DNA of 29,237 bases from Clostridiaceae bacterium (GTDB taxonomy: Bacteria; Bacillota; Clostridia; Saccharofermentanales; DTU023). The notes below the pieces were generated by a model that saw nothing but the letters and a program-made list of their open reading frames with translations, was not told the origin of the DNA and did not search any database. Location: NCBI GenBank assembly GCA_012799825.1, contig JAAZKK010000050.1:1-29237 (forward strand), written 5' to 3'. The position numbers and the translations under genes were made by a program. This document shows positions 7,160 through 22,228 of this stretch, in pieces; within the stretch, counting starts at the first letter, position 1, and each line of letters begins with the position of its first letter.

Positions 7160-7449
7160 CGTCTCCCGTGCTGATACGTTGGCTAGCCTCAATTAGACTA
7201 CGTCGGCAGATCTCAGACAAAAGTCTCAGTACATCCCTCTGAGCAGATCGCGCTTAATCGCGTTGGTCGACTTTGACTAGAGCGAGCATGAAAGGTCACT
7301 GACCCTTTCATCCCTGCGTTCTCCGTGCTGATCAGGCTTAAACGCGTTAGCCTGCTTTGATCAGAGTAAGCCGGGCAGATCGCGAGAAAATTCTCCGTAC
7401 GTCACCCAAGGCTGGTCAGGCATGAACGCGTTGACCGACTTTGATTTGA
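7160..7449. repeat. About 86-bp-period array: three decaying copies of the lyase gene 3' end (the fourth copy is the gene end itself, 7408-7495)
   Basis: U3 (7325-7407) is gtgctgatcaggcttaaacgcgttagcctgctttgatcagagtaagccgggcagatcgcgagaaaattctccgtacg. U4 is aggctggtcaggcatgaacgcgttgaccgactttgatttgatcagagcgagtcgggcaggtcgcgggaaaatttttctgcgag. Older units U2 and U1 are still recognisable. Confidence 0.75.
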
Positions 7450-8895
7450 TCAGAGCGAGTCGGGCAGGTCGCGGGAAAATTTTTCTGCGAGTCTCTCCTG
7501 CCAGTCGGACAGGGGGGCGAGTTTCCCGAGGAAAAAACGCAGGATTTTCGGTTCGTGCTCGAAGCGCAGGCCGCCGATCAAATCGCGGTTTTCAAAGAGC
7601 CACGTCACGCGGTCGATCGCGTAGTCGATCTGGCTCAGGGTGAAAACGCGGCGCGGCATCGCAAGCCGCAGGAGCTCCATCTCAGCGATCTTCTCATTCC
7701 CGTCATCATCTCTATTTTCGCTTAGTGTACCGCGCTCCATCCCCCGGATACCACCGGCAATGTAGAGAGCCGCGGCAAGTGCTGCTGCGGGATACTGTTC
7801 TTGAGGAATATGCGGAACGAAACGTGAGGCGTCGAGATGACAGCCAAGTCCGCCCGCCGGCGTCACGACCGGAATGCCGCGTTTTTCGAGTTCGTCGACC
7901 ATGTAGGCGATAAACTCAGGGCCTTGTGACGTTATGGCAAGATCGAGCGTCTCCTCAAGCCCGACGGCAATCGCCTCAATCTCGCGAACGGACATGCCGC
8001 CATACGTGAGAAATCCTTCGTTCAGCACGATCAGCTCTTTGAGCGGATTGACAAGTTCGCTCTCTCTCATGCAGATGCCGCCACCTCGCGCAAAACCGAG
8101 CTTTCTCGCAGAGAAATAAATGATGTCGCACTCGTCAGCAACAGCACGCATGATTTCTCTAAGCGAGAGATCTTTGCATTCCTCATCCTTGATTTTCAAG
8201 AAATAGAGATTGTCCTGAAGAAGTGACGCGTCCATGACAAGCGGGATATCATGCTTCCGACAAATCGCCGCTGCCTCTTTCAGATTCCCGAAGGAGAACG
8301 GTTGCCCGCCGATCAGGTTTGTCCCCGCTTCGATACGGACAAATGGCACTCGATCATTATTCTCCTCCAAAAACTTTGCTAGCGCTTTCGTGTCAAAATT
8401 GCCTTTGAACGGGTAATCACTTTGACAGTTAAGGCCTTCCGGGATAAGAAATTCGATAACCTCACCGCCACAGCGTTCGATATGTGCTCTTGACGTTGTA
8501 AAGTGATAGTTCATTGGCACAATATCACCCGGCTTCACGAGCAGATCTGCGAGAACCTTTTCACAGCCGCGACCTTGGTGGGCAGGCAAAAAGTGTTCCA
8601 TTCCGAAGATGTCTTGGACTGTTTTCTCGAGCCGGAAAAAGGACTCGCTGCCGGCGTAGGCGTCGTCTGCCCTCATCATCGCTGACTGCTGGCGATCGCT
8701 CATCGCGTTGACGCCGCTATCGGTCAACATGTCGAGAAAAATATCCTTATTGTGTAAAAGATAGAGATTGCTCGATGCTTCCTTTAGACGGGCGAGCCGT
8801 TCCTCAACCGGCAGCAGATTCAACTGCTGTACAATGCGCACCTTATGGCGCTCGAGCGGGATTTTCCTGCCGTCAAAAAAAGAGATGGTTTCCAT
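7450..8895 (-). CDS. Beta-eliminating lyase of the tryptophanase / tyrosine phenol-lyase family, with TPL-like signature residues (481 aa)
   Basis: I trimmed ORF 7450..9066 to the ATG at 8895, behind taAGGAGGAacgaacgc. Family motifs are DMLTDSGVNAMSD, the PLP-Lys context YFSARKLG, and GGMSVREIEA. The sequence has FTTS (TPL Thr124 position; tryptophanase has Asp) and LRFF (TPL Phe448; tryptophanase has His). Relative to TPL there is a C-terminal tail of about 18 aa. Confidence 0.9.
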   Translation of the reverse strand: METISFFDGRKIPLERHKVRIVQQLNLLPVEERLARLKEASSNLYLLHNKDIFLDMLTDSGVNAMSDRQQSAMMRADDAYAGSESFFRLEKTVQDIFGMEHFLPAHQGRGCEKVLADLLVKPGDIVPMNYHFTTSRAHIERCGGEVIEFLIPEGLNCQSDYPFKGNFDTKALAKFLEENNDRVPFVRIEAGTNLIGGQPFSFGNLKEAAAICRKHDIPLVMDASLLQDNLYFLKIKDEECKDLSLREIMRAVADECDIIYFSARKLGFARGGGICMRESELVNPLKELIVLNEGFLTYGGMSVREIEAIAVGLEETLDLAITSQGPEFIAYMVDELEKRGIPVVTPAGGLGCHLDASRFVPHIPQEQYPAAALAAALYIAGGIRGMERGTLSENRDDDGNEKIAEMELLRLAMPRRVFTLSQIDYAIDRVTWLFENRDLIGGLRFEHEPKILRFFLGKLAPLSDWQERLAEKFSRDLPDSL

Positions 8896-8986
8896 GCGTT
8901 CGTTCCTCCTTAGCTTTTTTCGATGCCATCGCGGCATCTCGCATGATCCGGCACTCATCGAGCCGGTGATCCGGGGGACGAAATGG

Positions 8987-9027
8987 AATAAAAAACGTCC
9001 GCCCGACATTTTTTGTCGAGAGGACGT
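8987..9027 (-). terminator. Intrinsic terminator of the T-box expression platform
   Basis: RNA ACGUCCUCUCGAC-AAAAAAU-GUCGGGCGGACGU forms a 13-bp stem with one mismatch and one G-U pair, followed by UUUUUAUU. Its 5' arm overlaps the 3' strand of the antiterminator. Confidence 0.85.
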
Positions 9028-9300
9028 CTGCTGACGTGATACCACCTCTCTTCGCTTCCACCTCACGGTGAAAACCTCTGCCGGTACGCCGATTCCTCAC
9101 TGCGAAGACAAAGTGGCCGTCTTCACAAAATCGGTTATACCGCCGCGCTGTCACGGGCGCACCCGTCGCCTCCTACCTCCGATCATACGGTCTCAGGACG
9201 CTGCTCGCGGAATGTATTCATCTCACCGTCTGCTTTTTGCCTCGCACCACCCGGCATATCTCTGGAAGCTTTCAATGGGATTACTTGTTTCCGGTCATGG
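8987..9300 (-). promoter_or_regulatory. T-box riboswitch leader with predicted Tyr (UAC) specifier
   Basis: Read on the minus strand:
- Stem I base CGGAA (9289-9293) pairs with TTCCG (9208-9212).
- AGTA box at 9282-9285.
- AGAGA bulge at 9258-9262.
- Distal loop GGGTGGTGCGAG at 9241-9252.
- Specifier GAA-UAC-A at 9213-9219, immediately before the base helix.
- Antiterminator: GAGAGG (9045-9050) / CCUCUC (9018-9023), a 7-nt bulge UGGUAUC (9038-9044), and ACGUC / GACGU around an AGCA loop.
- A competing terminator at 8987-9027.
- A weak candidate promoter TAGCCA-17-TACAGT lies near 9310-9340. Confidence 0.85.
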
Positions 9301-9617
9301 CATTTATGTTGTTTACTGTACCACAGGAATAGATCTTTGGCTAGACACAAAATGAATGATTTTTTCAAAAACGTCCAGATAGTCCAGATAGTTGAGAATA
9401 ATTCAGCTGAATACTTTCTGAAAACAAAAGAATATACGCAAAAGTGACAACAGAAGCTTAGATATAAAGACATGTTGTTACTTTGCTCTATTCATAAACC
9501 AACACTAGTACTCATTCCGTTACGGACATGACCAGATGAAATGAAGGAACTACAAGGAAAAGCATCTTTAGTCCTATCAGTTTTAGCTCTGACCTGACGG
9601 AACGAGTTAACCTCACA

Positions 9618-9773
9618 ATGATGAGTATGGACATATACGATAACCTCATCAACAAACAGGAGCTCTATCGTTTGCTCAACGAAGCCGAAGACAATTTCAA
9701 ATCAGGTAATGAGATGAGCTCCCGTGAGTCACTTCAAAAATTGCGCAAGGGTTTAAACGACAGAACAACGTAA
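9618..9773 (+). pseudogene. Possible remnant of the C-terminal part of a RelB/ParD-type antitoxin (51 codons)
   Basis: MMSMDIYDNLINKQELYRLLNEAEDNFKSGNEMSSRESLQKLRKGLNDRTT resembles the ...L.EAE.d...G......e.l..LR tail of small antitoxins. It has no SD and no intact partner ORF downstream. Confidence 0.2.
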
Positions 9774-10138
9774 TTCTGTCAAAGCCAAAGATACCATCAA
9801 AGTATTAAAGTGTTCATCAGCTGCCCAGTCATGACTTGAAAACTTCAAAAATAGCGATTAAATTTCTTGATGCGGTAGAAAAGACGGATCAGGGATTAAA
9901 GGTGATACCTTTACCGCTTTGAACTGGTGAAAGTTGAGATAATATAGCAACGGGAATATTAAAAATACTCTATTAGCAATTATCTCTTTTTGCAATATTT
10001 CTGAAAATGATGTCCATGTTTACTGCACTATCTATAGAAGAATGAACTTGGAGCTTATGTTTTAAAAACTAACACCCCTCTATGTATTGCAAAATTACGG
10101 CCATTTTTCATGCATTTTGTAGGGCACGGCGTCATTAT

Positions 10139-10906
10139 TCACCTGTCGGACAACAACACCTTGTTCTGATGTGTCCCAACAAGCTGTTGTATGTGCCGAT
10201 AGCTCCCCATCTCCCGGTACGCGTCAGGGAGGCCTGCCTTGTCAAGCATTCTCAGGAAGGAGTAAGCATCGTCGTATATGCGGCTATTGCCTTTTGTGAC
10301 GTAGTAATGCCCGTCGTGCGCTCGGTAATCAATCTCGTATATCTCCGAGCCGGGCACCTTGCCAATGCCAAAATCAATGAGTACCAATTGTTTTTTGTCG
10401 TTTATCAGCAGATTAGTAGCGCTGATGTCACAGTGGACGATTTGGAATTGCCGGAAGCATTTGTGTATCTCGATAAATTCGCCGCAGTACCGCTCAAACA
10501 GGTGCTCATCCGTCGGAATTTCAAAGTTGCGCAAATCAGCAAAAAATTGCGTGACTAGCAACGAGGTGTTTGTATCAAACGCCTTATCACTAGTCAATGT
10601 CCTCGGCACAAAGGGCAAATCGCAACTGGTTACATAGTGGTTGACAAAGATTTCGTTCCGAATGGTGCTGTCATTTTGCGCCAGCTTGACAAAACAAGTC
10701 TCCCCACGGTAATTTCCCTTGTAGTATTTGCGGATGGTTCCCTCACTGTCATCACCGATATACCAATTCTCCGTCCGATAAAGCTGTAAATCGGAAAGGC
10801 CATAGTCGGCTAGCTGGCTGATGGTTCGTCTGTGCTGCTCCGTTAGGTATTCATCCATGAACTGCCTGTGACGGCGCGGGTCGGTTGGAATTGGTTGGCT
10901 ACCCAT
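10139..10906 (-). CDS. Protein-kinase-like (eukaryotic-type kinase fold) protein, possibly a small-molecule kinase (255 aa)
   Basis: RBS AAGGAGGatgcgATG, 20 bp after the yhfX-like stop. It has the catalytic loop HCDISATNLL, the DFG motif LIDFGIG, and a candidate ATP-binding Lys in CFVKL. Confidence 0.8.
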   Translation of the reverse strand: MGSQPIPTDPRRHRQFMDEYLTEQHRRTISQLADYGLSDLQLYRTENWYIGDDSEGTIRKYYKGNYRGETCFVKLAQNDSTIRNEIFVNHYVTSCDLPFVPRTLTSDKAFDTNTSLLVTQFFADLRNFEIPTDEHLFERYCGEFIEIHKCFRQFQIVHCDISATNLLINDKKQLVLIDFGIGKVPGSEIYEIDYRAHDGHYYVTKGNSRIYDDAYSFLRMLDKAGLPDAYREMGSYRHIQQLVGTHQNKVLLSDR

Positions 10907-10926
10907 CGCATCCTCCTTGAGTTTTT

Positions 10927-12084
10927 TCAGTTCAATTGGTTACCGTATTTGTCGAAGATGCCTAGCATACGTGGAGCGCCGGTCCTTAGCCCTTCCACCA
11001 CCGCGATGGATGCATTTACTACGAAAAGCTGCGTTCGGAAAGCATACAGCACACCAGTTCCTACTGGTTCTGAGCATTCCAGCTGCGCATAGTAGTCGAT
11101 GTTGCCCGGCTGTACGTTCTCTGCGTTAACCAAATGATAGCCGCTCTCTTGGGCTACAATGGCGCGATGGATCTTAGCACGTCCATAGAAACCGCCGCCG
11201 AATACACAGCTTTTTCCGTTCCACTTGTGGGAAACCTCAGTAACGTATGCCATCGCCATTATTTCAACGCCGGGTGTACTGGTTGCACTTCGGTAGGTGG
11301 TTCCCGTGAATGCGTGCCCTGGCTCCAGATGAGTGACACCACCCCCGGCCGCTAGGGAAAAGGTAGCGCAGTCGTTCCCGCCCGGAGCATTGACCTGCTG
11401 TACCCGACAACCACAGTTCCTGCCTATATCTACCGCCTTACGCAAGGTATGAAAGTTGTGGGTGGGCTCCACCCGCTCGGAATCAAGACCTAACGCAAAA
11501 CAGGGAAAGGCTGTGAAACCCACAAGTTCCACATGTTCAAGCTGCTGAATTTCCTCAATCACCATCGGAAGTTGCTCAAGGCTAACTCCGCCATATTGCT
11601 GTGGATAGATAGTATCACCGACCTCGGTCACGCGTAGCAACAGTTGCTGCCGTCTACCGCTTTTATTCGCGTGACGGGATATTTTTTTTGCATTTTCAAT
11701 ATCCATCACGGTGATCACTTCTGGATCCATAGCTAGAGCCTCGTCCACACACCACTCAGGAATTTGCATGAGGTGTCCCAAATGCCCAATGACGAAGCCC
11801 TGACGGTGTAACGCCCGTGCTTCATCTATGCTCACAGCCACCGCCCGGGGGATACCACACTCAGCAATGGTCTTGCAAACCACAGGAATGCGCCCAATTT
11901 GCTTGGTCATCATGTACAGCTGCAGACCGAAATTATCCGCCGTTTCTTTTATTACAGAAGCGTTGCGCCGGATCGCGTCTAAGTCCAACACATAGGTGTT
12001 GGGAAGAATCCTACCGGTTCTATGAGCATATATCGACCATTCCACAAGGTCTAAATTCTGCTGAAGCAATGCGTCAACAAACAC
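10927..12084 (-). CDS. yhfX: YhfX-like PLP enzyme (alanine-racemase N-terminal fold, putative amino-acid racemase), 385 aa
   Basis: GTG start at 12084, 7 nt after GGAGGA that lies inside the end of the upstream gene. MFVDALLQQN...YVLDLDAIRRNA...LYMMTKQIGR...GHLGHLMQIP...VTHLEPGHAFTG...FRTQLFV is colinear with E. coli YhfX as I remember it. Confidence 0.85.
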   Translation of the reverse strand: MFVDALLQQNLDLVEWSIYAHRTGRILPNTYVLDLDAIRRNASVIKETADNFGLQLYMMTKQIGRIPVVCKTIAECGIPRAVAVSIDEARALHRQGFVIGHLGHLMQIPEWCVDEALAMDPEVITVMDIENAKKISRHANKSGRRQQLLLRVTEVGDTIYPQQYGGVSLEQLPMVIEEIQQLEHVELVGFTAFPCFALGLDSERVEPTHNFHTLRKAVDIGRNCGCRVQQVNAPGGNDCATFSLAAGGGVTHLEPGHAFTGTTYRSATSTPGVEIMAMAYVTEVSHKWNGKSCVFGGGFYGRAKIHRAIVAQESGYHLVNAENVQPGNIDYYAQLECSEPVGTGVLYAFRTQLFVVNASIAVVEGLRTGAPRMLGIFDKYGNQLN

Positions 12085-12087
12085 GGT

Positions 12088-13194
12088 TCAGTCCTCCTGC
12101 ATTATACTTTTTAGAGCTTCCTTCAAAATCCTCACTACAGTGTCGGCTCCAGCCCGCATAACATTAATGCGAATGTAATAGTTTAGACGCTCGGGGTTCT
12201 CAACGGCGAATGTTCTGGAAACCGTATAAAACAGCGCAGGGATCTCGTATTTCGATTCCGCCCCCACCGGACGGGGAGACGCACCCAGTTTTTCCGCCTG
12301 AGAAAGAACTCTGTAGGCAATGGGCTGTTCAAACTCAACCAAAAGTACTCGGGACTGCATATTGGCAACAAATACCCGACGAATGCCCCAAATCTTTTTG
12401 TCAGCAAGTTTTTGGATATCTACTCGCGCCTGCTCGGTTTGCATTGCCTGCACTGCCATGGCAACCGGTACGTTCACGAGACTTCGCAAGGCCTCCATGG
12501 CCTCCATTCCCTGCACCTGTGAGCCACCGGTACAGTTGCGTCGGCGAATGCGTTGCAGCAACTCGCGCTTGCCCAGCACACAACCAATACCTTCAGGTCC
12601 CTGCAGCTTGAAGAGCGAAAAAGCTGCAAGGTCCGCCCCTGCGGCAATGCCACACAACGGGGTTTTCAGCACAGCGTAGTTGTCGTCCACCACAACCTGA
12701 CACCCACAGCCTTTCAACGTCGCAATCACATCGCGAAGAGAATAGCTGTCGGTGAGCAACTGTCTTGCGTGTTGAACAACCGCTACGCTGGGCTTCTGCA
12801 AGGTAACAACGCTACGGGTTTCCTCCAGATCGTTGTAGTTCGCATTTACAACTCGCAGGGCCATGTCACGCAGGGTGATCTCGGTGGAAGGGTAGATAGG
12901 CGCAGCGTGCACCAGCACACTGCCACCCGGCTGTGCTACCGCCCCAAGAGCCTCACGAATGGCTCCGGTTCCAGCACCACGAACCAAAACGCAGTCCTGC
13001 GCGCCAAAAAATTGCGCCAGCGTCTGTTCTGCAAGGGTCGTGTGCAGGGGGCTACCGCCCTGCACAAGACCAAGATCACCCTGTTGCAAAAAAAGGCCGT
13101 TAGGGAAGTTCCTGTGTATACAATCCACCAATTTGAATTGCAGTTCCATTGCTTGCTCGATCGAAAGGGCATCCAACATTCCTGCTGTTGGCAT
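12088..13194 (-). CDS. yhfS: YhfS-like PLP-dependent enzyme (aminotransferase/lyase fold), 368 aa
   Basis: I trimmed ORF 12088..13257 to the ATG at 13194, behind GAGGTGatgag. Motifs GAGTGAIREAL, VVDDNYAVLK, FSLFKLQGPEGIG and VGAESKYEIPALFY match my recollection of E. coli YhfS. Confidence 0.85.
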   Translation of the reverse strand: MPTAGMLDALSIEQAMELQFKLVDCIHRNFPNGLFLQQGDLGLVQGGSPLHTTLAEQTLAQFFGAQDCVLVRGAGTGAIREALGAVAQPGGSVLVHAAPIYPSTEITLRDMALRVVNANYNDLEETRSVVTLQKPSVAVVQHARQLLTDSYSLRDVIATLKGCGCQVVVDDNYAVLKTPLCGIAAGADLAAFSLFKLQGPEGIGCVLGKRELLQRIRRRNCTGGSQVQGMEAMEALRSLVNVPVAMAVQAMQTEQARVDIQKLADKKIWGIRRVFVANMQSRVLLVEFEQPIAYRVLSQAEKLGASPRPVGAESKYEIPALFYTVSRTFAVENPERLNYYIRINVMRAGADTVVRILKEALKSIMQED

Positions 13195-13247
13195 CTCATC
13201 ACCTCGCATCCTCTGGCTATTTGGTTGTTTTGCGGGACACGCCTCGC

Positions 13248-15296
13248 TCATTCCCAAGTGATGATGAGGTTTCCGCCTTTTTCGCAGTAAAATCTGTCAC
13301 CAGGCCCCACAAAAATTGTGGTGTCCATCTGCTCGATAATGACCGGACCTATTCCCGAATACCCCTGAGGAAGATCATCTCGTCGGAAAACTGGAACCTG
13401 TTGGAAGCCCGTCTCCCGGAAGTAGACCGACCGCTCGGTTGCCGGTTTTGGAACAGCCGCCCCGCCAACTTCAAAGAAGCCTATGTCGCCCGATTTATCC
13501 AGTATACCGAAGCCAGAGCAGCGGATACTGACCAACTCCAGTGGTTCGTCGTTCGAAGCAGCATACCCATAGGACGCTTGATGCAGGACATGGAATTTCT
13601 CGGCTATGACGTCCCACCCATCGCCCGCAATATCCTCCGGATCGATCTCCATGGTCAGCTCGTGAGTCTGAGCCATGTAGCGAAGGTCAGCGTAAATGGT
13701 AAACCGCCGGTGATCCGAGTCAAAATCTGCTCGAGCCAGGTCTTCACTCGCCTTTGTTAGTAGGACATGATAGCGCTTACGTAGCTGGGCAGGTGCGAGT
13801 TCAGATAGTGGCAGAATCACGCTCTCCACGTAATCGTATCGCACGTCGCTCATCAAAAGGCCGATAGCGGCCGTGATGCCGGGGTAGCGGGGAACAATGA
13901 CCTTAGTCATATTCAGTGTTTTAGCAACAGCAACTGCCTGTAACGGACCCGCGCCTCCGCAGGCAAACAGGGCAAACTCCCTGATGTCGAATCCACGGTT
14001 AGCGACCAAACGACGCACGGCGTTGGCAATATTCTCGTTTACGATGTCCAACATGCCCTGAGCCGCCTCGTACACATCCATGCTGAGAGGCTCCGCTATC
14101 TTTTTGGCAATCGCATCGTGGCTCAAGGCAACATTGATGGGGAAGCTACCACCCAAAAGTGCCGTTTGGTTCAGCCGCCCCAGCAACACGTTGGCGTCGG
14201 TAAGTGCCGGTTCCTCACCGCCCTGATTGTAGCACACCGGCCCCGGCATGGCTCCAGCGCTGGTGGGGCCCATGTTCAGCATGCCGCCCCGGTCTATCCA
14301 TGCCAGAGTGCCGCCACCCGCTCCAATGGTAGCCACGTCGATGATGGGTAAATGCACCACGGTGCCAAATTCGATCTCCTGCTCGTCGCGGGTCATTAAT
14401 TCACCGTTATACACTATGGCAATGTCGGTGCTGGTGCCGCCGCTGTCGATAGAAATCACCGACCGCTCGTCAAGCTGCTTCGAAATGCCCTTCATGGCAA
14501 TGGCCGCTGCAGCTGGTCCCGAGAGCAGGGTGCGCGGAGCAATATGCTCCACCGGGTATACTGGCGCCACCCCACCATTGGACAGCATCAAAAGAATATC
14601 ATTTTGATACCCCTTTTCTCGGCTATCCCGACTCAGAATATCGATATAATCCTTCAAAAGGGGTCCCACATAGGCAGCCACGCTCACGGTGCTCATGCGT
14701 TCAAATTCACGCCATTCACGTAACAGCTCGCTTGATGTGGTAACGTACAGATGAGGATATGCCTCACGGATGATGGCTGCCGCCTGTTCCTCGTGGGAGG
14801 GGTTGATGTAGGAGTTGATGAAGCAGATGGCCACAGCTTCAATCCCCTCGCTTGTCATCCCTTCCACCAGACTGAGCAATTCACTCTTATCCACTGAGCG
14901 AATCACATTTCCCATACTGTCGATCCGTTCGTCTAACTCTAGGCGGTAGCGGCGCTCTACCAGCTCATCCGGCTGATCCCATTGTAGATCATATAGCCGA
15001 CCACGAGTGGTGCGACGGATCTTTAAAACATCCCGAAAGCCCCTCGTGGTAATCAAAGCAACTTTCGATCCCTTCTTTTCGATAACGGCGTTTGTGGCTA
15101 TGGTTGTGCCGTGCATAAACAGATCCACAGCGGACAGGTCGTATCCACTTTGGGCAATGGCATTCATTACCCCTTCGCGCAGGTTGTGCGGAGTGCTGTG
15201 CACCTTTTTTACAATGGTTTTTCCGGTGACTGGATCTAGAAAAATCCCGTCGGTAAAGGTTCCGCCAACATCAATTCCTATGTTTGTAGTTTTCAT
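13248..15296 (-). CDS. hyuA: Hydantoinase/oxoprolinase family, A (alpha) subunit, 682 aa
   Basis: MKTTNIGIDVGGTFTDG is the N-terminal ATPase motif, and the ORF is family-length. RBS GAGGGAGG. The ATG overlaps the hyuB stop by 4 bp (ATGA). Confidence 0.9.
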   Translation of the reverse strand: MKTTNIGIDVGGTFTDGIFLDPVTGKTIVKKVHSTPHNLREGVMNAIAQSGYDLSAVDLFMHGTTIATNAVIEKKGSKVALITTRGFRDVLKIRRTTRGRLYDLQWDQPDELVERRYRLELDERIDSMGNVIRSVDKSELLSLVEGMTSEGIEAVAICFINSYINPSHEEQAAAIIREAYPHLYVTTSSELLREWREFERMSTVSVAAYVGPLLKDYIDILSRDSREKGYQNDILLMLSNGGVAPVYPVEHIAPRTLLSGPAAAAIAMKGISKQLDERSVISIDSGGTSTDIAIVYNGELMTRDEQEIEFGTVVHLPIIDVATIGAGGGTLAWIDRGGMLNMGPTSAGAMPGPVCYNQGGEEPALTDANVLLGRLNQTALLGGSFPINVALSHDAIAKKIAEPLSMDVYEAAQGMLDIVNENIANAVRRLVANRGFDIREFALFACGGAGPLQAVAVAKTLNMTKVIVPRYPGITAAIGLLMSDVRYDYVESVILPLSELAPAQLRKRYHVLLTKASEDLARADFDSDHRRFTIYADLRYMAQTHELTMEIDPEDIAGDGWDVIAEKFHVLHQASYGYAASNDEPLELVSIRCSGFGILDKSGDIGFFEVGGAAVPKPATERSVYFRETGFQQVPVFRRDDLPQGYSGIGPVIIEQMDTTIFVGPGDRFYCEKGGNLIITWE

Positions 15297-17026
15297 TCGG
15301 CAGCCTCCCTCATCTCCGCCCGCAGCCGGTCGCTAGCGGCGGTATCCACTTTGTCCTGATCGTCGATGACAATACCATATTCTTGATACAAGTGCTCGCT
15401 TGAGAGAAGCCCGTGCAAGAAATCCTTTTCCGCGAGGGCGTAGTCTCGCTCCAGCGGATCACCGTAGCCGCCGCCGCCTGCAACCAAGACGGTCACCTCG
15501 TCGCCCTCTTTCACTAGGTAGTTGCTGGCTTTCAGGGTAAGGTTCACCTCACGTTCGGTTCCCATGTTTAGTACCAGTCCTTGGGGCATTGCCGGCTTGC
15601 CACCAAACAGACCCCAAGGAGGAAATTTCTCCCTGTCACCGAGGGCGCTCAGTTTTGCGGTGCCTCGAGCTATCACAAAGCGCTTGATAGAGCCGTTGCC
15701 ACCCCGAAAGCGGCCAGGGCCACCCGAGTCCTGTCGTAGCGACCACTGGTTGAACAGTATGGGGTACTTGCGCTCAAACACCTCCACGGGGGTGATGCGA
15801 GCACCGCCCCCAAACAGTGACACAAGGCCAGAAGAGCCGTCCTTGGTGGCACGCCCGCCAAAGCCACCTTCGCTGAAAAGATACATCACATAGTATTCGC
15901 CGGTCTTGTCGTCCACACCTCCCATAACTAAGTTGATCAGCCCGTGGGGGCACCCGGTGGACTTTTCTGGGCAGGCATGGGCCAGCGCGCCCAATGAGAC
16001 GCCGATTACTTTCTCGTACACCGTGCCCGCCATGGCGCTAATGGCCGCGGGAGGTCGTGCGTTCACCACCGTTCCCTCGGGGATGATGAAGGAAATGGGC
16101 AGAAAACAGCCGTAGCTCATGGGAACATCGGGAAACAGCGACTTTATTGTGACGATGACTGCCGATACCGTGGAGGAATATGTGCCGTTAGCGGCGCTGC
16201 GTGTCTGTGGGTCAGAGCCTGAAAAATCAAATTCCATGCGATTTCCCTTCACCGTCATCTTCACGGCAATTTTCACCGGGTCTTTGCAATACTTACTTTC
16301 CTCGTCCATATACTCTTCAAAGAAATAGCTACCGTCTGGAATTTTATCAATCTCCTTTTCCAGCATCACCTTGGCGTACTCAATGGTTTCTTCCATAAAC
16401 TCTAGGATGTTTTCCACACCGTACTTATCCGCCAACTCGATGACCCGGCGCTCGCCAATGGCTACCGAGGATATCTGGGAGGAGAGGTCTCCCTCTCGCT
16501 CCCAAGGAATGCGCACGTTTGACATGATGATATCGTGGACACCCTTGGCCATTACGCCACGCTCCATAATCTTCACTGGCGGTATGCGGAGACCTTCTTC
16601 AAAGTGCTCTTCAGCAACAGAGTTCAGGCTACCAGGTGTAGAACCTCCCACGTCAGCCCAGTGCCCAGCAATGGCCACAAATCCAATGCGCTTGCCCTTG
16701 TAAAACACTGGCTTGATGACCCCTACATCGTTGAAATGGGTGCCGCCAATAAAGGGGTCATTGTTGATAAACACATCGCCTTCAAACAAGTTTCCTTCGT
16801 AGACTTCCACGATTTTTCGCACGGAATATTGCATCATAGTAACGAATACCCCTAGGTCAGATTCTCCCTGAACGATCAAATTGCCGTTACCATTGAATAA
16901 GGCAGCACCTATATCCCGTCCTTCTGTAATGACCGCGGAATAAGCCGAGCGAAACATGTTGATATTCATTTCATCTGCAATACTTTTAAAGGCGCTTTGC
17001 AAAACCGAAAAAGTAATGGTATCCAT
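15293..17026 (-). CDS. hyuB: Hydantoinase B / oxoprolinase family, B (beta) subunit, 577 aa
   Basis: I trimmed ORF 15293..17293 to the ATG at 17026, behind GGAGGAcaatt. MDTITFSVLQSAFKSIADEMN...ITEGRDIGAALF is the typical N-terminus. The upstream in-frame extension overlaps the permease gene. Confidence 0.9.
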   Translation of the reverse strand: MDTITFSVLQSAFKSIADEMNINMFRSAYSAVITEGRDIGAALFNGNGNLIVQGESDLGVFVTMMQYSVRKIVEVYEGNLFEGDVFINNDPFIGGTHFNDVGVIKPVFYKGKRIGFVAIAGHWADVGGSTPGSLNSVAEEHFEEGLRIPPVKIMERGVMAKGVHDIIMSNVRIPWEREGDLSSQISSVAIGERRVIELADKYGVENILEFMEETIEYAKVMLEKEIDKIPDGSYFFEEYMDEESKYCKDPVKIAVKMTVKGNRMEFDFSGSDPQTRSAANGTYSSTVSAVIVTIKSLFPDVPMSYGCFLPISFIIPEGTVVNARPPAAISAMAGTVYEKVIGVSLGALAHACPEKSTGCPHGLINLVMGGVDDKTGEYYVMYLFSEGGFGGRATKDGSSGLVSLFGGGARITPVEVFERKYPILFNQWSLRQDSGGPGRFRGGNGSIKRFVIARGTAKLSALGDREKFPPWGLFGGKPAMPQGLVLNMGTEREVNLTLKASNYLVKEGDEVTVLVAGGGGYGDPLERDYALAEKDFLHGLLSSEHLYQEYGIVIDDQDKVDTAASDRLRAEMREAAE

Positions 17027-17115
17027 AATTGTCCTCCAATGGCTTGTAAGTTGCCACAGTTTGGTTACTGGTTTACCTATACTGATCGCCGTATCAGCAG
17101 AAGGTACCGCCGAGC

Positions 17116-18420
17116 TTAGTTTTTGGCAGGAATTGGCTTCATTACCTTGCTTAGGACGAGGTAAGCCACACCGCCCACAACCAGACTGTTGATGCCCGAA
17201 ACACCGATGGCAGCGTAGGGCAGCACACCCAAGGGATTGCCGGTAAAAAAGTCTGCAACAACCGCGATAATCCATGCTAGTATGGCCGGCCAATGGAAAT
17301 CCCCTATACCTTCAGTCTTTTTTTCAACGCCCCGCCTTACATAGAAATAGTCGATGGCGATAATGATGCCAATAGGCGGCATGAGCATGGCCAGTACTCC
17401 CAGATAGACAGCTAGATTCGTATACACGCCGGTAGCGCACACAATTGTTCCGATGAGCACCGTGACGATGGTGAAGATGTATTTTGGCATTTTGAACAGT
17501 TTAGAAAGAGCTAACCCGGCGGAATAGACGTTGTTGTCAGCAGAGGACCAAGTGGAAAACAGCAGAAGCAGAAAGCCGATGACGGTGAATAGTTTGCCTC
17601 CCATAGTCACGATGAGAGTCACCAGATCGGGGCTTCCGGTGCCCTTCACCGCAATGGCACCTAGAGAAACAAAGATGAAGAATCCGAGACCGAAAGAGAG
17701 CAACGAGGCTCTTGCAGCGCTTTTTCCAGTCTTGTCATAACGAGTCACATCTCCTGCCAGCGTGGCGCCGGCGATAAAAATACCGATGGTGGTGGTAACG
17801 CCCGTACCAAAGGTGATTGGAGCAGTTGTGGGGCCAATTTGGTTGATAGCAGTCCAACCGCCGCCGGCGATGATACCCTTGATAGCAGCAATCAGAACGA
17901 GTAGACACATGGGAACAACGATGAAGTTGCTGAGTGCAGCAACGCCCCTAAAGCCCAAAAAGGCGGAGGTGCCCATGAGTAGGCTAGCTATGATGCCACC
18001 TGACACGGTCAGTGAGCCGCTTGCCATCCCAAACAAAGCCTCTAGACTAGGGATGAAAAACCCAACGGTTACACCGTAAAACAGTATGTTGGCAATTGCC
18101 ATGGCAGCTGCCACGATGTTGGAACCCCTTTCGCCAAACGCGATTCTCGCAACCATAGATGTGGACAAGCCCTCCTTGGCGCCAATCATTGCCAGCGGCA
18201 TGGAGTAGACACCCAAAATCACGGCGCCTACAAAGATGGCCAGCAGAGCCATGGGCAGGGTCATGCCGGTGGCAATGTTGCCTCCTGTGATGGCAGGAGC
18301 AGGGTTTATGACCCAGCACAACAGCACGGAGATGATGGTGAACATACTTTTTCGTTCGCTTTGTGGTACTACGGACAGTTCGTTATCTTGCAAAACGCTC
18401 TTGCTTTTACTCTTGTTCAT
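17116..18420 (-). CDS. NCS1-family (purine-cytosine / hydantoin-type) permease, 434 aa
   Basis: RBS GAGGAGGTaagtatcATG. About 12 hydrophobic segments. The N-terminus ...VVPQSERKSMFTIISVLLCWVINPAP is typical of CodB-like transporters. Confidence 0.88.
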   Translation of the reverse strand: MNKSKSKSVLQDNELSVVPQSERKSMFTIISVLLCWVINPAPAITGGNIATGMTLPMALLAIFVGAVILGVYSMPLAMIGAKEGLSTSMVARIAFGERGSNIVAAAMAIANILFYGVTVGFFIPSLEALFGMASGSLTVSGGIIASLLMGTSAFLGFRGVAALSNFIVVPMCLLVLIAAIKGIIAGGGWTAINQIGPTTAPITFGTGVTTTIGIFIAGATLAGDVTRYDKTGKSAARASLLSFGLGFFIFVSLGAIAVKGTGSPDLVTLIVTMGGKLFTVIGFLLLLFSTWSSADNNVYSAGLALSKLFKMPKYIFTIVTVLIGTIVCATGVYTNLAVYLGVLAMLMPPIGIIIAIDYFYVRRGVEKKTEGIGDFHWPAILAWIIAVVADFFTGNPLGVLPYAAIGVSGINSLVVGGVAYLVLSKVMKPIPAKN

Positions 18421-18587
18421 GATACTTACCTCCTCATTTTCTTTTACTATGGTGTATCATTGTGTATCCCGCAGGTGTCCTCACTCGACAGAAGTGTGTC
18501 CTGTCTTTTTAGTGGGGAGTTTCACACAAACGGGAAACTTCCAACCGGATTTATCCGCCTCCACAGAACACTGCGCAGCGGGTGCCT

Positions 18588-19811
18588 TTATACCGGAAAA
18601 GCCGGCAGGGCAAGTAGCTCTAAAAAGCTAGTGCCGTTTTCTGGCGAAGCGGCACCGAAGTAAGCGGTGGCGGTTGCCCCTATGTCAGAAAGGGTCTCAC
18701 ACACACCAATGTTCAAGGGTCCACCCTGATGAGAATGGATCATCAAAGGCACCATTTCCCGAGTGTGGTGCGGATGGCCAATGGCGGGATCGTTCCCATG
18801 ATCCGCCATCACCACCAAGATATCGTCACCGCTCAATTCCCCTACAATGTCCGCAATGCCCGCGTCGGCAACCTCGAGTATGCTGGCAAATAACATCGCG
18901 TCCTCCTGGTGGCCACTCAAATCAGTTTCCTGCACATTGACGCAAAAAAAGCCAGATTTCTCTTTTCGTAAAAGCGCTAGGGTCTCCTTTAGAACGGCTC
19001 TTGTGTCCACCATAGATACACTGGTTCCGTAGGCATTGCTCACCACATCTGCCACCTTACCAAGCAGGTACACCGGTACGTCCATCTTCCCTAGAATAGT
19101 AGGCACCTGCACCTCCGCATTCACTCCGTAACCCAAATGTACGCAATGGTAATCGCTTCGGTATACGCCTGAGGCGGGAGCGTTGACTCCGATATAAGCT
19201 CCATATTCTTCTATGGCGGCCAACATGTCCGGTAGATGCACCCCTCGTCCTCCGAAAACGATTACTCGTGAAATGGTGCTAACCTCACGCACAAGCCGCC
19301 CAACCTCCACTGCCCACTCAAATGAAATGTCGTCGAGGGCAACCGTGACATTGAACGCCAAGCCAGGATCACACTCGATATTGTCGGCAATAGTAATACA
19401 CTCCTCTACAATCAGTAGCCGCTCTTGATCGCCCTGATACACACGGGTATTCCATCCGTTTTTGGTTAGAGTATCGTTTATTGTGTCCAGTTTGTTCTTG
19501 ATCGGTTCCATGACAGGTTTTTTTGGCAAGGTGCCCATGATCTCCTGATGGCCGAAGAAGGTATCCGCGCCGTCGTGCATAAGCTTTGCCCTTCCCCACA
19601 CCGCCGTTTTGCTGTACAGGATAGAATTCGTCTCAAATCCGCTGGCATTGGCAAGACCCAACCGCGACAAGGTGGGCAACTCAAGAGAAGGCACCGCTTT
19701 TACTATGTGCGCAAAGGTATTAGCGCCATGGTCTTGCGGACGCACAGAAGACACGTCAGGCATCTCCCCGATGCCAAAACCATCCAAGACAATAACAATG
19801 AATCTTCCCAT
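18588..19811 (-). CDS. yhfW: YhfW-like phosphopentomutase / metalloenzyme-superfamily phosphomutase, 407 aa
   Basis: MGRFIVIVLDGFGIGEMPDV is the DeoB/YhfW metal-binding N-terminus, and ADHGNDP lies near the C-terminus. I prefer the ATG at 19811, behind GAAAGGcgcaaa. The ATG at 19844 is an alternative start. Confidence 0.85.
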   Translation of the reverse strand: MGRFIVIVLDGFGIGEMPDVSSVRPQDHGANTFAHIVKAVPSLELPTLSRLGLANASGFETNSILYSKTAVWGRAKLMHDGADTFFGHQEIMGTLPKKPVMEPIKNKLDTINDTLTKNGWNTRVYQGDQERLLIVEECITIADNIECDPGLAFNVTVALDDISFEWAVEVGRLVREVSTISRVIVFGGRGVHLPDMLAAIEEYGAYIGVNAPASGVYRSDYHCVHLGYGVNAEVQVPTILGKMDVPVYLLGKVADVVSNAYGTSVSMVDTRAVLKETLALLRKEKSGFFCVNVQETDLSGHQEDAMLFASILEVADAGIADIVGELSGDDILVVMADHGNDPAIGHPHHTREMVPLMIHSHQGGPLNIGVCETLSDIGATATAYFGAASPENGTSFLELLALPAFPV

Positions 19812-20060
19812 TTTGCGCCTTTCTGCTTGGGATGGTGTTAACAACTAACTTATATACAGAATTTTGTACTATTTGCTATATCATATCACGTGTTTTACCC
19901 TGCGTCAATGCACGATACATATGAATTATTTGTTTATAAATTGTGCATTTTCCATAATTATTCGGAATCATTATTGCTCTTTTCTCTGCGTGATGATATA
20001 GTTCTATTGATATATATATTACTCTGTATATTTAAATTGTTGCATAAGGAGGACATTGTT

Positions 20061-20987
20061 ATGAGTTCGGCCAACACCATGTTCCGACAAAAAGTGGGCA
20101 TCGCTGCACAGCAAATTGCCGCTCAAATCATCCCGCTGGACGTGGGAAACCGGGTTCCGACAGTTTCGGATTGGACCCTGCAGTTAGGCGTTGCGCGAGG
20201 TACGATCCAGACGGCAATCCAATATTTGAGAGATTCTGGTGCTGTCAAACTACAGTTCAGGGGGAAAAAGGGTTCCTATATTGTACAGATGGATCGTATG
20301 AAACTTACTGAAATAGCAGGCTTACACGGTTTGATTGGGGTTATGCCGCTTCCGTATTCTAAAAAATACGAGGGGCTAGCAACGGGAATTTATAATGTAT
20401 TAAACGATGCCGGGCTGAACACCAACCTAGCTTTTATGCGTGGATCCGATAACCGCCTGCGCACACTTATGCAAGAGCGGTGCGATTTTGCGGTGATGTC
20501 AGAGCTAACCGCTGAGTACTACATAAAAATGGGTTATCAGGTTGCGGTAGTGCTGAACCTAGGCAATTTTTCCTATGTGGACAAGCACGTGGTGTTGGTA
20601 AGAAAGGACTTTAAAGGCCATTTCAACGGTTTAAAGGTAGGTGTTGACAACTCCTCCATCGATCAGAAAATGATGACGGCCTCCTTTTTTGAAAGATACA
20701 ACGTAACCTACGTCCCGCTCATTTACAGCGATATCATTGCCAGTCTTCGAAGTAGAAAAATAGACGCCGCTGTATGGAATTTTGACAATATTAATTTCTC
20801 GGAAAACGAACTCTCCTATTTGCCGATCAGCCAGAATGAGTTGCAAATTGCCGACACTCGTGCAGTGATTCTATGTCGCCAGGCTGATACACTGGTGTGT
20901 TCCCTTCTGGGAAAAAACGTAAACGCCCAAAGCATCTTAGAATATCAGCGCGACGTTCTCGTAGGCAGAATGACTCCGCGCTACTGA
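20061..20987 (+). CDS. yhfZ: YhfZ-like transcriptional regulator (N-terminal HTH plus YhfZ C-terminal ligand domain), 308 aa
   Basis: I trimmed ORF 19890..20987 to the ATG at 20061, behind AAGGAGGacattgtt. GVARGTIQTAIQYLRDSGAV, MPLPYSKKYEGLATG and LAFMRGSDNRL match my memory of E. coli YhfZ. The gene is divergent from the operon. Confidence 0.85.
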   Translation: MSSANTMFRQKVGIAAQQIAAQIIPLDVGNRVPTVSDWTLQLGVARGTIQTAIQYLRDSGAVKLQFRGKKGSYIVQMDRMKLTEIAGLHGLIGVMPLPYSKKYEGLATGIYNVLNDAGLNTNLAFMRGSDNRLRTLMQERCDFAVMSELTAEYYIKMGYQVAVVLNLGNFSYVDKHVVLVRKDFKGHFNGLKVGVDNSSIDQKMMTASFFERYNVTYVPLIYSDIIASLRSRKIDAAVWNFDNINFSENELSYLPISQNELQIADTRAVILCRQADTLVCSLLGKNVNAQSILEYQRDVLVGRMTPRY

Positions 20988-21135
20988 GACGAGGCCGGTG
21001 TAAAAAACTGTACTTGTGCTAAGAGTGACATCTTATCCGCAATTTGAAACATCTTCGGGTACAAAGAAATAGACCGAATTGTATGACTGTGATCTAGTTT
21101 TGAAAAAGAAAAGAGCCGTCTCAAAAAGTGAAGCA

Positions 21136-21559
21136 GTCATTAGTCTGTCTATACCGGATAATCGCTGGGTCAAGTTGACGAACCTTATTTCTCGGCCCTT
21201 TGTAGAAATGAAGTACCGGAAGAATTTTCGCGGTAATCGTGGATAGCAAGCTCATTGCGCATCACAGACATCCATCTTGCGGCCAGGCACGGCTTTAATA
21301 TATTGTGTATTCACAAGCATGGCGCGCACGTTCATCACTTCCAAGATGTTGTAGATGGGCTTCTAATATGAACCCGTACTCTCCATTGCCACCATCTGAA
21401 TCTTTCGTTTCAATAACCATTCGCAAAGCACAATCAGATCTCCGGTCATCGTCCCAAATGTCCATATCTCTTGTCGATTCTTCTCGTCTAAACAGCAGGA
21501 AACGATCTTTGCTTAGCGAATATCCATCCCACAACAACGCTCATATACAACTTTCATAG
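21136..21559 (+). pseudogene. Frameshifted remnant of a transposase N-terminal domain (IS4/IS5-superfamily, InsH-N-like)
   Basis: Frame 1 reads SIPDNRWVKLTNLISRPFVEMKYRKNFRGNRG and then hits a stop. Frame 2 reads ...NMNPYSPLPPSESFVSITIRKAQ. The remembered consensus is IPeDNrWVkLaklIPW...kY...F..n.Gn ... eNPY...PFdpS..v.FRKR. No DDE domain follows. Confidence 0.35.
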
Positions 21560-22228
21560 AATCCTCCCATAGAGCGCGGCATCTCATATCCCTTGATCTA
21601 TTACGCGTGCTCGGCTAGGCCGGCAACAATGTGTGGTGCAAATAAGATGCCAAACCAGACTACATAACAGGCTTGGAGCACTATTGTGACCTCGATCTTT
21701 GTCTGCTAAGAAAATTCTACGCTAAAATCGCCGCAACAACCCGGTTATGTAGCGCATGGCGAGGAATAGGACACGACGCCTCATGGAGGACTACATGTTG
21801 TCTTTGCTATCTGTCCAATGTATCAGTGTTTTAATTCTTTCTCTGTTATTAACGCCTCAAAGTCCTTCTAAGAGCCTTCTTTTCCGATTTAGGTCAATGT
21901 CGCTGAAATAAATTCTACTTTTCCAAAATTGGTCATGATCCCAGGATAACCTCCGCATAATCGTCAAAACCATGGTATCATTCGTGTATTCCACACCGTT
22001 ATAAAAGACTCTAATCATATTGTCGGGGAAGAATTTTCATGGCAAGAATAGAGCGTAAGAATCGCATCTTCCCCACTCCGCTTTCAAGATCATCTTTTGT
22101 TAATTTTAGGAGCCTATTTCTTTACTGAATAGCTGCTTAATAGGGTAGGTAAGCGTAAAATGCAAACCACTGTTAACAATTCTGGATAAATATAAATTAG
22201 AAGAAAAATAGGATGAGAATCGTGGGTT

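Follow-up and report, generated by a model that had tools for sequence, protein, structure and literature searches.

A 29,237-nucleotide stretch of clostridial DNA (contig JAAZKK010000050.1 of GenBank assembly GCA_012799825.1, from a Clostridiaceae bacterium), called the window below, carries between positions 10139 and 20987 a set of eight genes that is related to the yhf cluster of Escherichia coli. Seven co-directional open reading frames (ORFs) lie on the minus strand and a divergent one lies on the plus strand, and their products include four yhf-type proteins, an NCS1-family permease, the two subunits of a HyuB/HyuA-type enzyme (HyuBA) and a kinase-fold protein. The same seven genes and divergent yhfZ-like gene, in the same order and with a 4-bp overlap of hyuB and hyuA, had been described in an earlier reading of the letters alone (the sequence-only reading), and ORF analysis agrees with it down to the coordinates. 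The features, beginning with the regulator and following the operon downstream, are listed here.

20061-20987, plus strand: yhfZ-like GntR-type regulator (HTH_41 and YhfZ_C), 308 amino acids (aa); NF041241 and Pfam YhfZ_C
19812-20060, no strand: AT-rich divergent control region, 249 bp; promoter-like site and two operator-like sites (predicted)
18588-19811, minus strand: yhfW-like metal-dependent phosphomutase of the alkaline-phosphatase superfamily, 407 aa, operon gene 1; PRK12383
17116-18420, minus strand: NCS1-family permease, CodB-like, 434 aa; Transp_cyt_pur
15293-17026, minus strand: hyuB, putative metal-site subunit of an ATP-dependent cyclic amidohydrolase, 577 aa; Hydantoinase_B
13248-15296, minus strand: hyuA, ATP-binding subunit, 682 aa; Hydant_A_N, Hydantoinase_A and Hydant_A_C
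12088-13194, minus strand: yhfS-like fold-type-I pyridoxal-phosphate (PLP) enzyme, 368 aa; YhfS-like_C and Aminotran_5
10927-12084, minus strand: yhfX-like fold-type-III PLP enzyme, 385 aa, GTG start; Ala_racemase_N and YhfX-like_C
10139-10906, minus strand: protein-kinase-fold kinase of a rare family, 255 aa, last operon gene; weak Pkinase/RIO1/ABC1 matches

The spacers between the minus-strand genes measure, in gene order, 167, 89, -4 (the hyuB/hyuA overlap), 53, 3 and 20 bp, and a GGAGG-type ribosome-binding site stands ahead of every start codon. The identical sequence is found on public metagenome contigs, where independent gene calls give the same eight genes, and in a metagenome-assembled genome labelled Clostridiaceae bacterium/Saccharofermentanales, with HyuB under the accession NMA17780.1. 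We read the eight genes, with confidence that is about evenly balanced by doubt, as a self-contained catabolic operon that would be controlled by YhfZ and would represent a modular variant of the widespread yhf cluster.

Families were assigned through Pfam and NCBIfam profile searches and through full-length BLASTP against E. coli K-12. Profile searches had been named in the sequence-only reading as the check on its YhfS/W/X/Z, Hydantoinase_A/B and NCS1 assignments, and all of these are borne out. The regulator belongs to the YhfZ family (NF041241 YhfZ_full, 344.5 bits against a cut-off of 260; PF14503 YhfZ_C, 220.9 bits; PF14502, HTH_41, 45.7 bits) and is 33% identical to E. coli YhfZ over its full length. 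The YhfW-like protein scores 528.8 bits with NF009049/PRK12383 (cut-off 254) and is 46.5% identical to E. coli YhfW over its full length, which places it among the predicted phosphopentomutase-like mutases of that family; its closest solved structures are phosphopentomutases, aligned over the C-terminal half only. Residues D10, D83-T84 (the nucleophile position), D297/H301, D337-H338 and H349 are kept in 73 to 83 of 84 family members. It is not a DeoB orthologue, since the true DeoB models score below their cut-offs on it (162.6 against 256 and 134.1 against 341.2 bits). The YhfS-like protein is a member of the YhfS family (PF22475 YhfS-like_C, 112.3 bits with a cut-off of 27; PF00266 Aminotran_5, 48 bits), with 49% identity to E. 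coli YhfS over 359 aa and 337 bits to PDB entry 4J8L. Its Schiff-base lysine K196, in an S-x-F-K motif, and a DDNYAV motif are invariant in 88 of 88 sequences. Likewise, the YhfX-like protein falls in the YhfX family (PF21279 YhfX-like_C, 93.4 bits with a cut-off of 27; PF01168 Ala_racemase_N, 57.7 bits; 38% identity to E. coli YhfX over 386 aa; 275 bits to PDB entry 4KBX), and its Schiff-base lysine K61 is invariant in all 83 sequences. The E. coli php-yhfSTUVWXYZ cluster itself had been called uncharacterised in the sequence-only reading, and so it is labelled: RefSeq uses ‘putative’ and ‘uncharacterized’ for its products, 4J8L and 4KBX are titled ‘Uncharacterized protein YhfS’ and ‘YhfX’, and the literature that was searched yielded no function assigned to the cluster.

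The remaining genes of the operon come from other families. HyuB (Pfam Hydantoinase_B, 561.5 bits) and HyuA (273, 181 and 34 bits for its three Pfam domains) are adjacent A and B subunits of the hydantoinase-oxoprolinase-lactamase family. The best NCBIfam match of HyuB is caprolactamase beta at 305 bits, and HyuA reaches 522 bits with caprolactamase alpha; both fall well short of the cut-off of 1000 bits that defines CapA and CapB (NF050156, NF050157), and HyuBA is a relative of caprolactamase and not itself a caprolactamase. The top PDB matches of HyuB are 7HK5, an N-methylhydantoinase, at 312 bits, and 6YRA_B, whose deposited name is ‘Hydantoinase’, at 254 bits, compared with 152 bits for acetophenone carboxylase and 96 bits for acetone carboxylase. 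By sequence, HyuB and HyuA are nearest to the hydrolases of their family (N-methylhydantoinase, caprolactamase) and not to the carboxylases. The clade of HyuB is tight (71-100% identity), and the next relatives fall to 59%. Within the clade D38, H97, D100 and H122 are invariant, and these appear to correspond to the metal ligands D41, H99, D101 and H124 of CapB (PMC8453981), matched by position only. Enzymes of the HyuAB type couple lactam hydrolysis to ATP because the reaction is endergonic (PMC8453981; PMC11033972), and related enzymes accept five- and six-membered lactams (PMC11033972). The permease belongs to the NCS1 family (PF02133 Transp_cyt_pur, 75.5 bits with a cut-off of 23.5, residues 18-393). 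It reaches only 215.8 bits with the cytosine permease CodB equivalog NF008241, whose cut-off is 326; it is CodB-like, and the score does not assign a specificity to it.

The 255-aa kinase has weak profile matches. Pfam gives Pkinase at 24.1 bits (below the 31.7 cut-off) and RIO1 (23.7 against 22) and ABC1 (23.1 against 22.9), which barely pass and cover short stretches, and NCBIfam gives weak matches to Bud32 and Kdo kinase. An AlphaFold model, with a predicted local distance difference test score (pLDDT) of 92.6, matches protein kinases at a Foldseek probability of 1.0 and template-modelling (TM) scores of 0.40-0.48, and together these results place the protein, by prediction, in the protein-kinase-like fold. 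The model shows a small protein that has no regulatory domains and whose C-lobe is reduced. Across 11 homologues there is no variation at K74, E85, H158-x-D160-x4-N165 or D178-F-G180, or in RxYDDAYS, a motif of the family. Judged by these residues and those described above, the predicted catalytic hallmarks of YhfW, YhfS, YhfX and the kinase are intact. The family is rare: a set of 5.8 billion proteins yielded 11 clusters, and one of 1.84 billion yielded about 56 representatives at E<=1e-30. Homologues at 42-55% identity occur inside the same module in five other loci (L095, L096, L099, L104 and L106; loci are numbered with an L throughout). Other family members (L089:8881-14083; L092:5648-10145; L093:6313-10822; P0270) lie in polysaccharide biosynthesis loci beside polysaccharide pyruvyl transferases; in L089-L091 the kinase homologue is two genes upstream of an NTP-transferase, and one family member is fused to a FrhB/FdhB-like domain.

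How far the window departs from its relatives can be seen from a scan seeded with YhfS, in which one genome per species was searched across 185,579 species. This gave 311 relatives, and the best 80 (L009-L088), with YhfS 45-52% identical to that of the window, were inspected; they come from Clostridia, Erysipelotrichia, Bacilli, Treponema, Leptotrichia, Petrotoga and others. Nothing in the scan exceeded 52% identity to the window's YhfS; the host species or the locus is therefore absent from these representative genomes. In the 80 canonical loci Php is found in 72, YhfT and YhfU in 71, a YhfY-like PRD protein in 66 and YhfZ in 65, and HyuA, HyuB, NCS1 and the kinase are near YhfS in none. Given these counts, the canonical yhf architecture is very stable, and the window departs from it. 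A further protein of about 340 aa resembling the amidase signature family (GSSSG motif; Pfam Amidase 26.9 bits, just under the cut-off of 27; for example L082:4068-5054, L034:8002-9093 and L049:8928-9956) is present in 51 of the 80 and absent from E. coli and all HyuBA variants. The genes that mark a canonical cluster beside yhfS, yhfW and yhfX, namely Php of the phosphotriesterase (PTE) family, YhfT (PF10797) and YhfU (DUF2620), are missing here: none of the window's ORFs matches Php, YhfT, YhfU or YhfY, none encodes the amidase-like protein, and the window has no components of the phosphotransferase system (PTS). Because Php, YhfT and YhfU are absent, the locus is a variant and not a canonical member. 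As a separate observation, in the Erysipelotrichaceae loci L037, L040, L076:12305-14648 and L077 yhfW is immediately followed by a second Php and by a YhfS-like gene of greater length (about 450 aa), a partial duplication of the pathway.

The variant is not confined to the window. Looking up the contigs of kinase-family and HyuB-clade members revealed the same eight gene families, in rearranged order, in L096/97, L099/100, L104/105 (ordered as in L099, with a transposase and an integrase adjoining) and L106, and in partial form in L095, L101 and L108; counted by lineage, the set is found again in at least five metagenomic lineages besides the window's. A profile scan of metagenomes with HyuB gave 20 loci, one of which (L108) belongs to the window's HyuB clade. 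Proteins are only 41-86% identical between the variant loci and gene order differs from one to the next, so the association is kept by selection. HyuA is 65-70% identical to HyuA of L096, L099 and L101, and the permease is 59-73% identical to the NCS1 protein whose gene precedes hyuB in the same three; an NCS1 gene takes this position in all seven HyuBA-linked loci. Neighbour-joining trees place YhfS of the six HyuBA-linked loci in a clade of its own, and YhfX likewise, separate from the 80 canonical sequences and E. coli; the corresponding YhfW tree gives the HyuBA-linked loci no exclusive clade. The gene yhfZ is at the head of every related variant locus, and the invariant core of the pathway is YhfZ, YhfW, YhfS and YhfX. 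The arrangement lies far beyond chance and is a genuine, recurrent and rare variant of a widespread orphan operon.

Around this core, two exchanges of modules can be distinguished. In the first, Php, with or without the amidase-like protein, is exchanged for NCS1 and HyuBA: Php is absent from all seven HyuBA-linked loci (L108 is cut off within hyuA), as opposed to its presence in 72 of the 80 canonical ones, none of which has HyuAB. In the second, YhfY (a PRD protein), YhfU (with an RpiB-like fold) and YhfT (a membrane protein), which are PTS-linked, are exchanged for the kinase. The kinase occurs in just those cases that lack YhfY, YhfU and YhfT, namely the window, L096, L099, L104 and L106. 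Locus L101 has NCS1 and HyuBA together with YhfY, YhfU, YhfT, HPr and Enzyme I, and it has neither kinase nor Php; L108 has a YhfY-like gene followed by NCS1 and HyuBA. The two swaps are separable because L101 combines NCS1 and HyuBA with YhfY/U/T and no kinase. The sequence-only reading had proposed that HyuAB and an NCS1 permease displaced Php and YhfT, with the kinase as an additional step, and had suggested mining gene neighbourhoods for HyuAB and Php. That comparison upholds the displacement of Php by HyuBA; the pairing of NCS1 with YhfT and the view of the kinase as an extra step are not supported in that form, L101 having kept YhfU and YhfT beside NCS1.

Quite apart from L101, a link to the PTS is seen in canonical loci, where YhfY, YhfU and YhfT in some genomes have HPr, Enzyme I and a Gat/Asc-type EIIABC as neighbours. 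HPr and Enzyme I occur in the same gene string as the yhf genes in 6 of the 80 canonical loci (Petrotoga, four Treponema and Allofournierella). The four Treponema loci (L035, L036, L041 and L059, at about 2800-15200) have no YhfZ, and they have a Mga/PRD-type activator, EIIA_2, HPr and Enzyme I upstream while keeping YhfT; a PTS_IIB gene follows downstream in three of the four, and then EIIC-GAT in two. YhfU and YhfT were considered as a new EIIB/EIIC pair of the PTS, an idea that was rejected for YhfU. The AlphaFold model of YhfU (DUF2620; L101:13755-14102; E. coli L002:2549-2902), with a pLDDT of 95.8, matches RpiB/LacAB isomerases at TM scores of 0.73-0.79, and EIIB is absent among the 50 listed matches; an invariant Cys sits in a CxTGxG motif. 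Comparison of YhfU and YhfT with UlaB, GatB and UlaA by hhalign was negative, with a marginal result only for RpiB, and a YhfT profile found no match in the PDB. Neither protein is recognisable as an EIIB- or EIIC-type component. The RpiB/LacAB-like fold of YhfU is itself a functional lead for a domain of unknown function. Since YhfU and YhfT do not resemble EIIB and EIIC, the link to the PTS comes solely from neighbouring bona fide PTS genes. The kinase would then replace a PTS-associated unit whose biochemical roles are only partly understood. Most simply, a phosphorylated intermediate would be required by the pathway; PTS-fed clusters would obtain it on entry, and the NCS1-fed variant would have to make it with ATP.

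Features of the control region are consistent with regulation by YhfZ. In the divergent spacer at 19812-20060 (249 bp, 30.5% GC), some 70 nt ahead of yhfW, a promoter-like TTGACG-17-TATGAT that has an extended -10 TG occupies 19908-19880 of the minus strand. The spacers are free of terminator-like sites; promoter- and terminator-like sites in the window overall are at chance level. In the variant loci whose operon begins with yhfZ, a palindrome, ATATACAG-N4-CTGTATAT, lies directly upstream of this gene, perfect in L101 (7088-7272) and near-perfect in L095 (1-750), L099 (7108-7572), L104 (1-384) and L106 (3323-3453), the ranges in brackets being the regions concerned. The window's spacer has degenerate TATACA-N6-TGTATA copies at 19853-19870 and 20013-20030. 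With a relaxed form of the pattern there are 4 matches in the window where 0.65 are expected, two of them in the divergent spacer, and the strict core ATACA-N4-8-TGTAT precedes yhfZ in 7 of 61 canonical loci, the background rate being 0.009 per 300 nt. The palindrome is a candidate YhfZ operator, and its placement fits control of both promoters by YhfZ. The spacer also holds an inverted repeat, AATGCAC/GTGCATT, at 19907-19949, and a search with Rfam found no riboswitches or other RNA families anywhere in the window.

The class of substrate can be approached through the nearest outgroup of the HyuBA clade, a sister clade with 51-60% identity in HyuB that comprises L102 (where HyuA is 53% identical to the window's) and about a dozen environmental loci. 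Its genes are found beside AnmK (anhydro-MurNAc kinase), MurQ (MurNAc-6-phosphate etherase), NagA and NagB, all above NCBIfam cut-offs, as well as a PIG-L deacetylase, GntR/UTRA or RpiR regulators and sugar ATP-binding cassette (ABC) transporters (L102:54-8524; L109:4613-11996; L112, L114 and L115 at about 7000-15800; L116:644-11395). Because the sister clade sits among AnmK, MurQ, NagA and NagB genes, this branch of HyuBA is, on predicted functions, tied to amino-sugar metabolism, again paired with a kinase. A sugar-like substrate is also suggested because YhfU is RpiB-like, YhfW is a phosphomutase and other kinase homologues lie in polysaccharide loci. We infer that the substrate is a sugar-derived, nitrogen-bearing ring. 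Clusters with HyuBA would take it as a lactam, and those with Php and the amidase-like protein as a phosphorylated lactone or lactam that is sometimes N-acylated. In the case of Php, transfer of function from phospho-sugar lactonases was considered. The Bacillus halodurans yhf-cluster PTE (Php) is closest to E. coli Php (228 bits), and second among its solved relatives, at 137 bits, is 3PNZ, which we take to be the Listeria enzyme Lmo2620. Work by Xiang et al. in 2012 (cited as reference 68 in PMC4191879) is said to have found hydrolysis of phosphorylated sugar lactones by Lmo2620. The kinship of Php with 3PNZ fits a sugar-derived substrate. Direct transfer was rejected, 3PNZ being only a distant relative (137 against 228 bits). 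A precedent for a sugar-amino-acid lactam, agropinic acid with the HyuAB-like AgaF/AgaG, reportedly exists; it is unconfirmed and was left unused as evidence.

On this basis a pathway can be proposed, and for its order of steps and class of substrate we would put our belief at about the midpoint between acceptance and rejection. A cyclic amide of the lactam type, most likely derived from a sugar or amino sugar, would be imported by the NCS1 permease, and HyuBA would spend ATP to open the ring, exposing a carboxylate and an amine. This ring opening would unmask the groups that both PLP enzymes would target. The kinase would phosphorylate a hydroxyl, the role that PTS phosphorylation would have in canonical clusters, and YhfW would shift the phosphate. 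YhfX (of racemase/epimerase type) and YhfS (of lyase/aminotransferase type) would then convert the amino-acid end to a keto-acid phosphate that enters central metabolism. YhfZ would sense the substrate or an intermediate and control the divergent promoter. Ring opening followed by phosphoryl and PLP chemistry had been foreseen in the sequence-only reading; it stays plausible and is strengthened here. A simple hydantoin or amino-lactam ring is less likely, and a sugar-derived ring more likely. A bolder extension can be imagined, in which this HyuBA clade and its sister would be ATP-dependent amino-sugar lactamases (one candidate substrate being muramic delta-lactam from spore cortex), the YhfW/X/S core, including that of E. 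coli, would be a hitherto unrecognised PLP route degrading a phosphorylated amino-sugar acid, and where the PTS feeds the pathway Php would open the phosphorylated ring without ATP; this is speculative, and we think it distinctly unlikely as a whole. We know of no ring-opening enzyme for muramic delta-lactam. A paper on an unusual recycling of muramic acid in mycobacteria does not mention hydantoinase-type enzymes (PMC13041923).

Several points weigh against the proposed operon and pathway. Every step is a prediction from family membership and gene context. The usual substrates of PLP enzymes of fold types I and III are alpha-amino acids, and no sugar-derived lactam suggests itself as a clear source of one. 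The idea that the kinase replaces PTS phosphorylation depends on the PRD protein and on HPr and Enzyme I genes that adjoin the cluster in only 7 loci; YhfT has no detectable similarity to known EIIC, and an EIIB-like character is lacking in YhfU. The kinase might make up for the loss of some other function of YhfU or YhfT. In L101, which has NCS1 and HyuBA and no kinase, phosphorylation of a cytoplasmic HyuBA product would need the PTS-linked genes or a gene elsewhere. The 167-bp spacer between yhfW and the NCS1 gene might contain an internal promoter. Finally, the best 80 of 311 canonical loci were inspected, and HyuBA variants are possible among the remainder.

Other explanations of the gene set differ mainly in the roles they give to NCS1, HyuBA and the kinase. 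The permease might replace YhfT and HyuAB replace Php, leaving the kinase as an extra step with no canonical counterpart. YhfT is a polytopic membrane protein with a Pfam family of its own and could be a transporter, and the window and four further lineages have NCS1 and lack YhfT. L101, however, has YhfU and YhfT plus NCS1 directly upstream of hyuB, L108 has its YhfY-like gene and then NCS1 and HyuBA, and the kinase is missing precisely in the locus with YhfY/U/T, HPr and Enzyme I. Among the variants, moreover, NCS1 is conserved (59-73%) like HyuBA (65-75%), with the yhf proteins more diverged, and we regard this explanation as unlikely. Alternatively, two unrelated functions could share one transcript, with NCS1 and HyuBA forming an ordinary unit for hydantoin, N-methylhydantoin (creatinine) or 5-oxoproline. 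This we hold to be very unlikely, because the linkage persists through shuffling of gene order in at least six lineages, YhfS and YhfX co-diverge as exclusive clades, and HyuBA is inserted between yhfZ and yhfS under a YhfZ-type control region. Carbamoylase, sarcosine oxidase and creatinine deaminase are absent from every variant locus, the caprolactamase models score far below their cut-offs, and the nearest HyuBA outgroup is tied to amino-sugar genes and not to creatinine or hydantoin genes. Set against these are the annotation of HyuB homologues as ‘N-methylhydantoinase B’ in the sources, the N-methylhydantoinase that is the best solved relative of HyuB, and the general fact that NCS1 carriers transport hydantoins and pyrimidines.

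A third possibility turns the pathway around, from breakdown to anabolic salvage: after the ring of a scavenged sugar derivative had been opened, a phosphate would be added at the anomeric position and moved by the mutase, and the product would go into the synthesis of envelope polysaccharide or peptidoglycan. Kinase homologues in polysaccharide biosynthesis clusters, in L089-L091 close to the NTP-transferase, would suit such a role, as would the sister HyuBA clade in peptidoglycan-sugar recycling clusters and the general ability of phosphomutases of the YhfW superfamily to interconvert 1-phosphates and 5-phosphates. We nevertheless consider salvage quite unlikely, since all module loci are devoid of a nucleotidyltransferase or glycosyltransferase, two PLP enzymes have no obvious part to play in it, a permease of its own and a regulator of the GntR type that has a ligand-binding domain are typical of inducible catabolism, and the PTS link of the canonical relatives is a catabolic signature. 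The kinase, lastly, may lie outside the pathway altogether, as a hitch-hiker or a regulatory protein kinase; its Pfam matches are to protein-kinase families, its Foldseek matches are eukaryotic protein kinases, and homologues also occur in unrelated polysaccharide contexts. That seems highly unlikely for a protein kept in the module in five lineages at 42-55% identity, either before or after yhfW, encoded 20 bp from yhfX with its own ribosome-binding site and missing only where PTS-linked genes are present. It is, in addition, small, with a reduced C-lobe and no regulatory domains, and its weak NCBIfam matches include Kdo kinase, a sugar kinase of the same fold.

The surroundings of the module can be described briefly. 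Gene-poor stretches of 1.1-1.2 kb, with short ORFs only, flank it on either side (9067-10138 and 20988-22228), one of them with a 51-aa ORF at 9618-9773 reported by gene callers, and in L104:11440-14337 the module adjoins a DDE transposase and a phage-type integrase. The flanks and these mobility genes hint at a module that moves as an island. About 1.2 kb downstream of the operon, on the same strand, lies a tryptophanase-family beta-eliminating lyase (window 7450-8892, minus strand; PRK13238, 581 bits with a cut-off of 285) that is not kept beside the module in other loci. The genes at 5948-6640 (minus strand) and 4648-5457 (plus strand) are unrelated to the operon. One of the predicted proteins begins with a signal-peptide-like sequence and contains 23 threonines in a row, and a helix-turn-helix (HTH) protein neighbouring this poly-threonine protein has degenerate EEQF/GQI repeats.

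At least 311 sequenced species have the yhf cluster, as does E. coli K-12, and the structures of Php, YhfS and YhfX have been solved with no substrate assigned. The exchange of modules described here is a natural experiment that constrains this orphan pathway. The swaps suggest a ring-opening step, carried out by Php or by an ATP-driven cyclic amidase, and a phosphorylation step, carried out by PTS-linked genes or by a free kinase. They also suggest sugar-phosphate-like intermediates, since YhfU is RpiB-like, YhfW is a phosphomutase and the sister HyuBA clade lies among amino-sugar genes. This gives the pathway a short list of substrates, namely amine-bearing lactones and lactams that can be phosphorylated. 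The variant, with its permease, HyuBA and kinase, is a soluble and PTS-independent version of the pathway and should be far easier to reconstitute in vitro.

Among known systems, the closest is the E. coli K-12 cluster yhfZ-yhfY-yhfX-yhfW-php-yhfU-yhfT-yhfS (b3376-b3383), with counterparts in Clostridia, Erysipelotrichia, Bacilli, Treponema, Leptotrichia and Petrotoga. The window shares with it YhfZ, YhfW, YhfX and YhfS at 33-49% identity, the type of regulator and the tight operon, but it lacks Php, YhfT, YhfU, YhfY and the amidase-like protein of many canonical clusters and has NCS1, HyuB, HyuA and the kinase; its YhfS and YhfX fall in a clade separate from those of canonical clusters. A search of open-access literature, and hence weak evidence, found no description of the eight-gene set or of the association of HyuBA with AnmK and MurQ. 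The two-subunit architecture and overlapping genes of HyuBA are shared with the HyuA/HyuB lactamases, such as caprolactamase CapAB of Pseudomonas jessenii, N-methylhydantoinase and OplBA, which acts on valerolactam and 5-oxoproline. Whereas those enzymes belong to caprolactam, creatinine or glutathione-cycle contexts, the partners of HyuBA in the window are YhfS, YhfX, YhfW and a kinase. The sister clade, whose members are 51-60% (HyuB) and 44-53% (HyuA) identical to the window's proteins or to one another, resembles it in that HyuBA is accompanied by genes for uptake, for a kinase that uses ATP and, further downstream, for sugar-phosphate enzymes. Unlike the window, it has an AnmK-type kinase, MurQ, NagA and NagB in place of YhfW, YhfS and YhfX, ABC transport, and regulation by GntR/UTRA or RpiR proteins. 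The occurrence of HyuBA inside peptidoglycan-sugar recycling clusters appears to be undescribed, and muramic delta-lactam would be a candidate substrate there. Finally, the L-ascorbate system of E. coli (ula/sga), with an Asc-family PTS and a lactonase that acts on a phosphorylated lactone, differs from the yhf clusters in that UlaG has a metallo-beta-lactamase fold, not that of Php or HyuBA, and ula has no PLP enzymes; the window, for its part, has no PTS. It offers a parallel for the canonical yhf clusters, in which phosphorylation by the PTS would be followed by ring opening by a metal hydrolase, and the Treponema yhf loci, through EIIA_2, the PTS_IIB of three of the four and the EIIC-GAT of two, share a PTS superfamily with it.

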